Below, in pieces: positions 25,303-57,549 of a stretch of 64,000 nt of DNA; the first letter of the stretch is position 1; every line of letters begins with the position of its first letter. The notes under the pieces are model-generated. The model was not told the DNA's origin. It did no database searches and saw only the letters and a list, made by a program, of their open reading frames with translations. Source of the stretch: Escherichia coli (GTDB taxonomy: Bacteria; Pseudomonadota; Gammaproteobacteria; Enterobacterales; Enterobacteriaceae); NCBI RefSeq assembly GCF_003334785.1, contig NZ_QOWV01000002.1, one strand, 5' to 3'. Both the position numbers and the translations under genes were made by a program.

Positions 25303-26886
25303 TCACACCTCGTACTCCATCTCGCCATCCTTACGCAGCGGTATAATCTGCACCTTCTGCACGCGATGGCTTTCTACCTGCAACGTTTTAAGCAAATAAT
25401 CCCCCACCTGAACTTCTTCGCCAGGTTTTGGAATACGCTGCAAATACTCCATCAACAGCCCGGCAATGGTGTGATATTCACGTTTTTCATCCAGCGGCAG
25501 CGGCACATATTGCACCAGATCCTCCAGCGGCATATGACCATTCGCCGTCCAGGAACCGTCCGCATTCTTCTGAATATCATGGCGGGCGTCGATCTCTTCC
25601 ACTTCGTTCGGTAAGTTACCGGCAATGGTTTCAGTGACGTCACTTAATGTCACAATCCCTTCCACCGAGCCAAACTCATCCACCACAAAAGCAAAGTGCG
25701 TGCGGGCATTACGGAACTGCTCCAGGGCAGGTAACAACGGCAAGGTTTCCGGGAACACCAGCGGCTGGCGAATCAACACCCGCAGGTTGAGCGGTTCGCC
25801 GCGCAGAGACTGTTGTAGCAGGTCGATAACGTGAACAACACCGAGCAAATCTTCTGCGTCATCACCGTCGGTAACCACCAGCCGCGTATGCTGATTTCGC
25901 TCCAGCAACTGGCGGATTTCTTCTTCCGGCGCGTTGAGATCGATATGCTCAATATCGTGGCGCGACGTCATAATGCTGCTGACGGTACGCTGGTTAAGAT
26001 TAAGTACCCGCTCAATCATCCGCCGTTCCTGCGGATTAAAGATCTGCTGGTTACCATGATCCACCAGCATGGACGCGGTTTCGGCGTCCAGTTCCGCATC
26101 TTCTTTTTGCCCGCTAAGCAGGCGCATTACCGCTTCGGTAGTCCGCTGGCGCAGCGTCTGGTTAGCGGAAAGAAAACGTCGCCGGTTAAAGATAGCCAAC
26201 TGATTGAGCGCCTCGATCATCACCGAGAAACCAATGGCAGCGTACAGGTAGCCTTTCGGAATGACGAAGCCGAAACCTTCTGCCACCAGGCTAAAGCCAA
26301 TCATCAACAGGAAGCTTAAGCAGAGAATAACGATCGTCGGGTGACTGTTAACAAATTGCGTTAACGGCTTGCTGGCCATCAACATCAGGCTGATAGCGAT
26401 AACCACGGCGGCCATCATGACCAGTAAATGGTCGACCATCCCGACGGCGGTAATCACTGAGTCGAGTGAGAAAATGGCGTCCAGTACCACAATTTGCGTC
26501 ACCACGCCCCAGAACTTCGCACCTTTGCGTTGTGTGGGATTATTGCTGTCTTTCCCTTCCAGCCGTTCGTTCAGCTCCATCGTGGCTTTGAACAACAGGA
26601 AGAAACCACCAAACAGCATGATTAAGTCGCGGGCGCTAAAGGTAAACGAGCGGAAGCTGAACAGCGGTTGAGTCAGGGTGACCAGCCAGGAGATTGACGC
26701 CAGCAGTAACAGGCGCATTAACATCGCCAGCAGCAGCCCGGTAACCCGTGCGCGGTCGCGCTGCTTCGGCGGTAGTTTTTCGGCGAGGATGGCAATAAAG
26801 ACCAGGTTATCAATGCCGAGGACCAGTTCGATCACAATCAGCGTGATTAACCCGGCCCAGATAGACGGATCGGCAATCCATTCCAT
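25303..26886 (-). CDS. yegH: TerC-family inner membrane protein with CBS and CorC_HlyC domains
   Basis: ORF track 25303..26952 trimmed to the ATG at 26886 ([18 protein letters not shown]); 527 aa. Confidence 0.85.
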
Positions 26887-27333
26887 AGTAAGTACAAAAC
26901 CTATTCGTTGTATGACAAATGTCACAATTCGATCATGGATAAATCGGGGCAAAAATGCAATGTTGCAGCACTATTTATCTCATATTATTTGAGGGTAATA
27001 ACCTCACATTATCCCTGAATTAAAAGTGGTAATAATAAAACATTATTTAAGAAATATCGCATGTGGAGGCGCAATATTAAATATTGTCAACCTAAAGAAA
27101 CTCCTAAAAACCATATTGAATGACACTTAATATAATTCTTAAAAATAGCCAATTACCGAATTGTTATCTTGCCTGCTATTCCGTTAGCTGTAACACTTCC
27201 TCCTGCATTATTGGAAAGCCAATATTCAATTACCATAATGTCACCTTATATTCGGAAGTTAATTTCCGTAATAACCCTTTCTCATCAACGACTGCATGCT
27301 GAGAGGGTGTGAAAAATTAAACTAAATCAGTGT

Positions 27334-27372
27334 ATTGGTAGCTAAAAAGCCAGGGGCGGTAGCGTGTCTGGA
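27334..27372 (+). promoter_or_regulatory. JUMPstart element with ops (GGCGGTAGCGTG at 27355-27366), RfaH-dependent antitermination site
   Basis: agccaggggcggtagcgtg motif about 190 bp upstream of wza; the same motif recurs at 51845-51864. Confidence 0.8.
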
Positions 27373-27544: not shown

Positions 27545-28684
27545 ATGATGAAATCCAAAATGAAATTGATGCCATTATTGGTGTCAGTAACCTTGATAAG
27601 CGGTTGCACAGTACTTCCGGGCAGCAATATGTCGACGATGGGCAAAGACGTCATCAAACAGCAGGACGCTGATTTCGATCTCGACAAAATGGTGAATGTT
27701 TATCCGCTGACCCCGCGCCTGATTGACCAATTACGCCCACGCCCGAATGTAGCGCGCCCCAATATGACGCTGGAAAGTGAGATCGCGAATTACCAGTATC
27801 GCGTCGGGCCGGGGGACGTTCTTAATGTCACCGTCTGGGATCACCCGGAACTCACCACGCCAGCCGGTCAGTACCGCAGCTCCAGCGACACCGGCAACTG
27901 GGTACAGCCTGACGGCACTATGTTTTACCCGTATATCGGCAAGGTCCACGTAGTCGGGAAAACGCTCGCTGAAATCCGCAGTGATATTACCGGGCGCTTA
28001 GCGACGTACATCGCTGACCCGCAGGTGGACGTTAATATCGCCGCCTTCCGCTCACAAAAGGCCTATATCTCCGGTCAGGTGAATAAATCCGGTCAACAGG
28101 CGATCACCAACGTGCCACTGACTATTCTCGACGCCATCAACGCCGCAGGTGGCCTGACCGACACCGCTGACTGGCGCAACGTGGTGCTAACACACAATGG
28201 TCGTGAAGAGCGCATTTCTTTGCAGGCGCTGATGCAAAACGGCGACCTCAACCAGAATCGCCTGCTTTACCCCGGCGATATTCTCTACGTGCCACGTAAT
28301 GATGATCTGAAAGTATTTGTGATGGGTGAAGTGAAGAAACAGAGCACCCTGAAAATGGACTTTAGCGGCATGACCCTGACTGAAGCCCTGGGCAATGCTG
28401 AAGGCATCGACATGACCACCTCCAACGCCAGCGGCATCTTTGTCATTCGTCCGCTGAAAGGCGAGGGCGGGCGTAACGGCAAGATTGCCAATATCTACCA
28501 GCTGGATATGTCCGATGCCACGTCGCTGGTGATGGCGACAGAATTCCGCCTGCAACCTTATGACGTGGTGTATGTCACCACCGCCCCGGTTTCCCGCTGG
28601 AACCGTCTGATCAATCAGTTGCTGCCAACTATTAGCGGTGTCCGTTACATGACGGATACAGCCAGCGACATTCATAACTGGTAA
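27545..28684 (+). CDS. wza: Outer membrane polysaccharide export lipoprotein Wza
   Basis: 379 aa; lipoprotein signal (LISGC). Confidence 0.95.
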
Positions 28685-55389: not shown

Positions 55390-56417
55390 TTGTATATATT
55401 GCCGCGTATAATGGTTCAGGAGGGCAAGGTGGGGTGGAAAGGGTTGTTGCCCAACAATGTAACATTCTTAAAAATTTGGGGGTTAAAGTCATTATACTTG
55501 ATAAAGCATACTTCAAAATTTCTAACAAAATTCGTAACAAAAAAATACAAGTAGCACTTTATCCAATATTAGTTTCTCTTTATTTAACCTTACAAAAATT
55601 ACGTGGCGTGACGTTTAAAGTTATTGCGCATGGCTATTGTTCTCCTTTTTATAGGAATGACATCTTAATAGCTCATGGCAATATGAAATGTTATTTTCAA
55701 ACAGTCATGAAAAAAAAACCTAATCGATTGTCCGGCAGTGGTCTTTTATCTTTCTATGAGCGTTTGGCTGGATCATTCTCAAAAAATATCTGGGCTGTTT
55801 CAAATAAGGTTAAAAGTGAATGGAATGAGCTTTACAATATTAATTCACATAAAATTAAAGTTGTTCGAAATTTTATAAATCTTGAACAATTTGATTGCAC
55901 TGATGTTAATGAAGCACAATATGTGACATTTGTCGGGCGATTGGAAAAAGGAAAAGGAATAGATGATCTGTATTACATATGTAAAAATCTGCCAGATACT
56001 TCCTTCCATTTAGTTTCAAGTATTCCCGCCCCACAAAATTTTGCTTCGCTAAATAATGTTCTGACCAGCATTGCTGTCCCCTATGCGAAAATGCCAGAAA
56101 TATTTAAGAAATCCAGAGTACTTATTTTACCGTCCTATTATGAAGGATATGAGCTGGTTACTATTGAAGCGCTATGCTGTGGTTGCCCTGTGATAGGCTA
56201 TAACGTTGGTGCAATTAGAGAGTTGTATGCTGAAAGTTTTCCTGGCGTGTTTATTGCCAATAATAAAGAAGATTTAGCACAAGTAGCCTACGAACTAATT
56301 AGTCTTGATAATGAAAAATATTATCATTTGAGACAAACTATTTATAGCAAGCGTGAGCTTTTTTCTGAAGAGAGATATGCGGAAATTTTAACGGCGGCAT
56401 TTAATGAAAAAAAATAA
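55386..56417 (+). CDS. Glycosyltransferase group 1 (GT4)
   Basis: 343 aa; C-terminal E-x7-E-like region (EGYELVTIEALCCGCPVIG). Confidence 0.7.
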   Translation: MIVYIAAYNGSGGQGGVERVVAQQCNILKNLGVKVIILDKAYFKISNKIRNKKIQVALYPILVSLYLTLQKLRGVTFKVIAHGYCSPFYRNDILIAHGNMKCYFQTVMKKKPNRLSGSGLLSFYERLAGSFSKNIWAVSNKVKSEWNELYNINSHKIKVVRNFINLEQFDCTDVNEAQYVTFVGRLEKGKGIDDLYYICKNLPDTSFHLVSSIPAPQNFASLNNVLTSIAVPYAKMPEIFKKSRVLILPSYYEGYELVTIEALCCGCPVIGYNVGAIRELYAESFPGVFIANNKEDLAQVAYELISLDNEKYYHLRQTIYSKRELFSEERYAEILTAAFNEKK

Positions 56418-57549
56418 GAAACTATGTCTCATTTCAATTAACTCATATAATGAACTTACCGGAGGAGGAGTATATTTACGTACGCTTGTTAGTTTTCTAC
56501 AAAAACAGAATGTTAATTTAACACTTATTGATAAAAAATCTTCAGGTAAACTATTCGAAGACAATACTTTTCAACATATATCATTTATTAAAGGTAAACG
56601 TCAGGATATTATATCCAGGCTTTTTTTTATACCATCATTTTATGTCCCTTATATTTTCTCAATAATTAAAATTTTACGGAAGCAAGATATTCTAGCTTTT
56701 CACAACTCTCGACTTGGATTGTTATGTCTGCTTTTTAGAATACTCATGCCCCATAAAAAGATCATATTGTTTACGGATAACTTCGAATATGACTTAATAA
56801 GACAAAAAGATAAAAACATAACTACTTTTGTTGAAAAAATAATTGTTTATCTCAATGAATTTATCGGGCTTAAGAATTCACATTTAGTTAGCTATATTAC
56901 CCGGCAAGATAAAAATGCAATGGATAAATTTTATGGGGTTAAAAAAAGCAGAAATTTAATTCTCCCTGTGATATTTAGTAGAGAAAAGCCAACTGATGTA
57001 TTATCAGCTCACTTTATTAATGAGTATAATCGATTGAATAATGATAATAGGAAAAAAGTAGTATTTACTGCATCTTTTGATTTTTTTCCAAATATAGATG
57101 CTGCCAACTATGTTTTAAATGCAGCAAAGTCGAATAATGATTATTGCTATATTTTGGCAGGTAGGAAAAGTACTACTTTGAATCTTCCTGATTTGGATAA
57201 TTTATTTTTTTTCGATAATCTATCTAATAGTGAAATGTCATATTTATTATCTGCTTGTGATATTTTTTATTCTCCTATAGTTTTAGGAAGTGGAATGAAA
57301 ACAAAAATTGCAGAAGCGCTATCATATGGATTATATATTTATGCGACAGAGCATTCCTTAATCGGCTATGATGAAATTATAAACAACAAGGAGTGTGTTA
57401 AAAAAATCTCACATTTGGATGAGGAATTTCCTAAAGATTTCAAGGTGAAAAGTATCAATAAACAGCTAATAATGTCTTATCAGCAAAAATATTATTCACA
57501 TTATCGGTTTAATGGCCATGAACTTGACATGATAAATATTGACGATTAG
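56404..57549 (+). CDS. Glycosyltransferase group 1 (GT4)
   Basis: 381 aa; GT-B-like layout. Confidence 0.65.
   Translation: MKKNKKLCLISINSYNELTGGGVYLRTLVSFLQKQNVNLTLIDKKSSGKLFEDNTFQHISFIKGKRQDIISRLFFIPSFYVPYIFSIIKILRKQDILAFHNSRLGLLCLLFRILMPHKKIILFTDNFEYDLIRQKDKNITTFVEKIIVYLNEFIGLKNSHLVSYITRQDKNAMDKFYGVKKSRNLILPVIFSREKPTDVLSAHFINEYNRLNNDNRKKVVFTASFDFFPNIDAANYVLNAAKSNNDYCYILAGRKSTTLNLPDLDNLFFFDNLSNSEMSYLLSACDIFYSPIVLGSGMKTKIAEALSYGLYIYATEHSLIGYDEIINNKECVKKISHLDEEFPKDFKVKSINKQLIMSYQQKYYSHYRFNGHELDMINIDD

Follow-up and report, generated by a model that had tools for sequence, protein, structure and literature searches.

The yegH-wza divergent spacer

The window analyzed here, a 64-kb stretch of Escherichia coli DNA, contains the divergent genes yegH and wza, which are separated by a spacer of 658 bp with a G+C content of 34.7%. 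The features considered in and around this spacer are as follows.

25303-26886, minus strand: yegH, the divergent upstream neighbor of wza, with its start codon at 26886 according to the MG1655 annotation
27048-27061, plus strand: site A, an RcsAB-type box, TAAGAAATATCGCA, delineated by sequence, uniqueness, and conservation
27084-27090, plus strand: TTGTCAA, a conserved element used as positional anchor (MAFFT conservation of at least 90%)
27093-27106, plus strand: site C, TAAAGAAACTCCTA, equal to the RcsAB consensus at 10 of 14 positions and without G4
27126-27145, plus strand: site B, CTTAATATAATTCTTAAAAA, of which about 19 bp are nearly invariant among 60 distinct sequences
27169-27197, plus strand: predicted sigma-70 core cps promoter, from the block CTTGCCTG-N-TTAGCTGCAACAAT conserved across genera
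27328-27366, plus strand: JUMPstart element of the 5' untranslated region (Rfam RF01707, 57.3 bits, E = 2.5e-12)
27355-27366, plus strand: ops, GGCGGTAGCGTG, within JUMPstart, kept at an equal distance from wza in about 74 of 80 loci
27545-28684, plus strand: wza, first gene of the colanic acid (cps) operon, from the list of open reading frames (MG1655 b2062, annotated as Wza)

Three bases at 27069-27073 (GGCGCAA versus GACACTA) are the only differences between this spacer and that of K-12 MG1655. They lie outside site A and all other elements, between site A and TTGTCAA, where the sequence is not conserved, and site A itself is identical in MG1655. Thus, features mapped in K-12 apply directly to the window, MG1655 coordinates being obtained as 2164788 minus the window position; site A corresponds to 2137727-2137740 (complement) of MG1655. 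The RefSeq record of MG1655 holds no regulatory features in the yegH-wza spacer.

JUMPstart scores above the RF01707 gathering score of 35, and its location at 27328-27366 requires that the transcript starts upstream of 27328. In this upstream part, the block conserved across genera (27168-27197) reads CTTGCCTG-N-TTAGCTG(C/T)AACA(A/C)T. It comprises a candidate -35 element, TTGCCT (27169-27174), which a 17-bp spacer separates from an extended -10 element, TGtAACACT, with the TG at 27189-27190 and the hexamer at 27192-27197. From its sequence, the block would be a weak sigma-70 promoter conserved across genera, and we infer a transcription start near 27204 ± 3 (about 2137584 in MG1655), about 340 nt before the wza ATG. 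Relative to this predicted start, the centers of sites A, C, and B are located at about -150, -105, and -70, respectively, and site A lies about 115 bp upstream of the candidate -35 element.

A promoter scan returned TTGGAA-17-CATAAT (27211-27239) as its single match. It was rejected as the main promoter since it is confined to Escherichia; it is possibly a secondary, lineage-specific promoter or a chance match. The ‘wza promoter’ fragment of the LsrR paper is uninformative here, as it starts at ops and does not include the real promoter.

Sequence and position of site A

The RcsAB box is defined by the consensus TaAGaatatTCctA (PMC3950696; PMC4325325), in which capitals denote conserved nucleotides, and a functional box has been accepted at 9 of 14 matches if the conserved capitals match (PMC4325325). 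Site A equals this consensus at 9 of 14 positions and contains all six capitals (T1, A3, G4, T10, C11, and A14). On both strands of the 658-bp spacer, it is the only 14-mer to do so. Three other 14-mers of the spacer score 10 of 14, each at the expense of one capital: 27128-27141 on the plus strand, the same interval on the minus strand, and 27093-27106 on the plus strand. Site A is placed 497-484 bp upstream of the wza ATG (27545) and 162 bp from the start codon of yegH, with which wza shares the divergent spacer.

A preliminary description of this DNA had noted the same 14-mer at 27047-27060, in an AT-rich leader about 500 bp from wza. The 14-mer is real but lies one base further to the right, at 27048-27061, and both the 9 of 14 matches and the distance to wza were reproduced on recounting. 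The surroundings are indeed AT-rich, whereas the term leader does not hold in the sense of transcribed DNA, as site A is located upstream of the predicted transcription start.

Taken alone, the match of site A to the consensus is no better than chance. When the spacer is shuffled under a first-order Markov model, 11.9% of the shuffled sequences contain an all-six-capital site scoring at least 9 of 14 (p ~0.12), which bears out the original caution about a weak match in AT-rich DNA. The spacer contains no site with three or fewer mismatches to the RcsAB consensus, and the four such sites in the 64-kb window equal the shuffle expectation. Likewise, the window holds four all-capital sites of at least 9 of 14, site A included.

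Conservation of site A across Enterobacteriaceae

A scan with one genome per species yields 80 wza loci from Enterobacteriaceae, sampled from Escherichia, Citrobacter, Salmonella, Enterobacter, Lelliottia, Kosakonia, Phytobacter, Atlantibacter, Franconibacter, Cedecea, Buttiauxella, Trabulsiella, and other genera. The 480 nt upstream of ops, representing 75 distinct sequences, were aligned with MAFFT. The spacer is mostly unalignable and contains a few sharp conserved islands, one of which is site A. An equivalent of site A is kept in 61 of 73 species, in most of them 28-30 bp upstream of the conserved GTCAA within TTGTCAA. In Atlantibacter, one Citrobacter freundii, Cedecea, and Buttiauxella, the box is found at 39-40 bp, one helical turn further. 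The positional equivalent in Atlantibacter, TGAGGATATTCCTA, matches the consensus at 12 of 14 positions, that of the Citrobacter freundii, TGAGGATAATCCTA, at 11 of 14, and in one locus (L080) the sequence TGAGGATAATCTTA is displaced by about 80 bp upstream. As far as these sequences indicate, the variants that differ from the E. coli form move towards the RcsAB consensus. Superficieibacter, Trabulsiella, and Siccibacter are without site A at the canonical place and possess sites B and C.

The 59 distinct 30-mers give the profile T-A-R-G-A-W-A-T-W-T-C-G-C-A, with G4 and C11 present in all 59, T1 in 58, A5 in 57, T10 in 56, and A14 in 54, while position 3 is only A or G; position 12 is G in 50 of the 59. 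Downstream of the box, the flank is random; upstream, a short T-rich T-A-T-T is kept and the sequence is random beyond it. In 49 of 73 species, the plus strand carries the pattern T.RGA....TC..A within 120 nt upstream of GTCAA, compared with 1.0 expected from shuffles, and all of these occurrences are found at 28-30 bp. In a control region within the 5' UTR, the same pattern is present in 1 of 73.

The distance between the yegH start and the wza-side elements ranges from 198 to 376 bp across species, whereas that between site A and GTCAA is steady at 28-30 bp. Site A is therefore locked to the wza-side elements, which argues against a role specific for yegH.

Some loci deviate from this arrangement. 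In Kosakonia oryziphila, a second wza copy (L071), which shares its genome with L062, has no yegH neighbor and is without the array of sites A, C, and B; presumably, it belongs to a different capsule locus. In L004, L034, L035, and L038, yegH is present and the exact GGCGGTAG is absent from its usual place.

Two further conserved boxes between site A and the predicted promoter

Between site A and the candidate -35 element, TTGTCAA is followed by site C (27084-27109; TTGTCAA, then TAAAGAAACTCCTAAAA). The right half of site C, (A/T)TCCTAAAA, is of RcsB type and nearly invariant across genera, with T, C, C, T, A, A, A, and A each found in 64-69 of 69 distinct sequences, while its left half is variable. 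Site B is nearly invariant over some 70 species of Enterobacteriaceae and thereby exceeds site A in conservation. It contains the 14-mer TAATATAATTCTTA/TAAGAATTATATTA (27128-27141), which scores 10 of 14 against the RcsAB consensus whichever strand is read. The missing capital is G4 in site C and on the plus strand of site B, and C11 on the minus strand of site B. Both sites share the orientation of site A and have a good RcsB-type right half, TC(C/T)TA, without a TaAG left half. At a distance of 48-51 bp from site B, 73 of the 75 sequences contain GTCAA, though the invariance of its columns is partly built in by its use as anchor. Part of the invariance of sites B and C likewise results from anchoring; an unanchored MAFFT alignment also gives at least 90%.

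Site B includes a 12-mer, TTAATATAATTC (27127-27138), that recurs exactly in the upstream region of K-12 rcsA (L083, 371-382), a coincidence expected in about 8% of shuffles. Its presence in both site B and the box1 region of rcsA is only suggestive. Sites B and C may be secondary Rcs sites, or they may be bound by something else.

Comparison with known Rcs sites

An RcsAB box was reportedly described for the wza, galF, tviA, and rcsA promoters by Wehland and Bernhard in 2000, and the consensus is said to have been compiled from sites including that of wza. Site A resembles such a box in its length of 14 bp, its six capitals, and its position upstream of an Rcs-dependent exopolysaccharide operon in a K-12-like region, and it is most probably the very wza site of that study. 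It departs from the consensus by matching only 9 of 14 positions and by having G-C instead of c-t at positions 12-13, a departure that is itself conserved.

A further comparison is provided by rcsA. Upstream of K-12 rcsA, TAAGGATTATCCGA matches the consensus at 10 of 14 positions including the six capitals and is the better of two all-capital sites in that region; with site A, it has 10 of 14 positions in common, among them all capitals. The Salmonella rcsA promoter contains TAAGGTTTATCCGA (PMC7913699). Two RcsA/B boxes have been assigned to rcsA, box1 overlapping TGAATTGCCATTAATATA, and the RcsA-RcsB recognition sites are located about 170 bp upstream of the rcsA start (PMC11879457). Consequently, a place around -150, as found for site A, is normal for an RcsA/RcsB activator. 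The order of the box and TTAATATAATTC is reversed between the two promoters: In rcsA, the 12-mer lies about 34 bp upstream of the box, whereas at wza it lies 80 bp downstream.

For the RcsB homodimer, the structure-derived box is TN(G/A)GAN4TC(T/C)NA, exemplified by TAGGAAAAATCTTA of flhDC and TGAGACGAATCTGA of rprA (Huesa et al, 2021, PMC7913699). Site A fits this box at 7 of 8 specified positions, and the positions constrained across genera coincide with those of the box. It fails at position 12, which is G and not C or T. Further, RcsB-only boxes sit just upstream of the -35 element according to quoted literature, unlike site A with its distance of about 115 bp.

The overall layout of the wza region is reminiscent of the BvgA-activated promoters of Bordetella. 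BvgA and the Rcs regulators belong to the same FixJ/NarL family, and the RcsAB box is said, in the abstract of Wehland and Bernhard, to be part of BvgA sites. At fha and ptx, a far-upstream primary site is combined with cooperative secondary sites that reach to the -35 element. Similarly, wza has a full inverted-repeat site at about -150 and weaker half-sites of the same orientation at about -105 and -70. By analogy only, Rcs proteins may occupy sites C and B in a BvgA-like manner, oligomerizing along the DNA.

Site A as the probable operator of the cps promoter

Taken together, we consider it likely that site A is the RcsAB operator of the colanic acid cps/wza promoter. This assignment is based on three lines of evidence. 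First, site A is the only site in the K-12-like spacer that fits the capitals of the consensus. Second, selection acts on it at the contact positions of the RcsB family. Third, it sits upstream of a weak, activator-dependent promoter that is followed by JUMPstart/ops. The six capitals, the location upstream of the promoter of an Rcs-dependent exopolysaccharide operon, and the constraint at RcsB-family positions are properties of an RcsAB box that site A shows; its local match is not better than chance (11.9% of shuffles). The tentative reading of the preliminary description as an RcsAB box of the cps promoter thus gains support from its conservation in 61 of 73 species, its fixed spacing, the recurrence of the pattern in 49 of 73 species against 1.0 expected, and the RcsB-type constraint. 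By the same sequence evidence, RcsA/RcsB would be the protein that binds site A.

There is also a good chance that site A is identical to the published wza RcsAB site. A full-text literature search, with the primary mapping papers outside its scope, found no paper that gives the position or sequence of the wza RcsAB site or prints sites A, B, or C. Site A is almost certainly an already known textbook output element and, as such, nothing new biologically.

In the Rcs system in general, binding of RcsA and phosphorylated RcsB to the box turns on transcription, and read-through is brought about by RfaH acting at ops. In the mechanism we propose for wza, phosphorylated RcsB and the unstable co-activator RcsA would bind site A as a heterodimer and switch on the intrinsically weak sigma-70 promoter about 150 bp downstream (-35 TTGCCT, 17-bp spacer, extended -10 TGnAACACT). 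JUMPstart/ops in the transcript would recruit RfaH, allowing transcription to reach the end of the ~20-kb operon. Sites C and B, placed between site A and the -35 element, may help to relay activation, possibly as secondary cooperative sites. In a more specific and tentative version of this model, to which we give rather less than even credence, the wza control region is a conserved, phased three-element array. Here, RcsA/RcsB would nucleate at site A and spread cooperatively in a BvgA-like manner to site B, which, rather than site A, would contact RNA polymerase; or sites B and C might bind an as yet unassigned factor that the rcsA and cps promoters have in common.

Several observations speak against site A as the operator. 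At position 12, 50 of 59 sequences keep G, in contrast to the C or T of the RcsB box. Sites B and C exceed site A in conservation and persist in lineages without it at the canonical place, and site B is placed at a classical activator distance of about -70 and shares its 12-mer with the rcsA region. In an alternative reading, site B (27128-27141), possibly with site C (27093-27106), is the principal RcsA/RcsB operator, and site A is an auxiliary, lower-order, or other-partner site. Sites B and C, at 10 of 14, exceed site A in raw matches, hardly any variation is seen in their right halves, TCTTA and TCCTA, in any genus, even where site A is absent, the center of site B is typical of a class I activator, and TTAATATAATTC also occurs in the K-12 rcsA region at box1 (PMC11879457). 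However, site B on either strand and site C each miss one capital, and none of them would fit a consensus whose compiled sites all keep these positions. Moreover, their left halves are unlike TaAGaa, with that of site C not being conserved, the shared 12-mer arises in about 8% of shuffles, and the invariance of both sites is due in part to anchoring, even if the unanchored MAFFT alignment retains at least 90%. On balance, we regard a principal operator at site B as rather unlikely.

Still less probable is that site A serves another regulator as a conserved operator or belongs to the divergent yegH promoter, with an accidental likeness to the RcsAB box. Its distance of 162 bp from the yegH start codon within a shared spacer and the conserved G12-C13, which breaks the rules of the RcsB box, would be in keeping with such a role. 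Yet it is the spacing to the wza-side elements that is fixed (28-30 bp), while that to yegH varies (198-376 bp), constraint falls on the positions that define RcsB-family boxes, and equivalents in other genera are nearer to the RcsAB consensus, reaching 12 of 14. Finally, a functionless chance match in AT-rich DNA might be suggested by the equal match in about 12% of random spacers of the same composition and by the three further sites of this kind in the window, of which at least that at 57420-57433 falls within coding sequence. This reading is very improbable and in effect refuted by the conservation data: With 1.0 expected, 49 of 73 species have the pattern at the same position, and conservation falls to background outside the 14-mer, save for the short upstream T-A-T-T.

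With site A as the probable operator, the analysis provides a clean map of the cps control region, in which the operator is followed by two more conserved boxes, the core promoter, and JUMPstart. In textbooks, the RcsAB box of the cps promoter stands for the output of the Rcs phosphorelay, which responds to envelope stress. The present case illustrates that phylogenetic footprinting can validate or reject a 9 of 14 match at chance level. Only the pair of more strongly conserved boxes that separates operator and promoter is modestly new.

Additional observations in the window

A conserved block, 26911-26965, is located just upstream of the yegH start codon (26886, minus strand). A search against Rfam found no RNA families in this block, and its first part, 26911-26926, forms a CRP-like palindrome, TATGA-N6-TCACA.

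An open reading frame of 60 codons, 27120-27302, spans the conserved wza promoter. It is probably the ‘hypothetical protein’ annotated at this place in many RefSeq genomes of E. coli; if so, the annotation is probably spurious, since the frame runs across the promoter and other genera do not conserve it.

Elsewhere in the window, TGAGGAATTTCCTA at 57420-57433 shares 10 of 14 positions, all six capitals among them, with the RcsAB consensus. This 14-mer falls within a glycosyltransferase open reading frame of low G+C content (56404-57549) in the O-antigen region. Owing to its location within coding sequence, it was set aside as an Rcs-related site and is probably a chance match.
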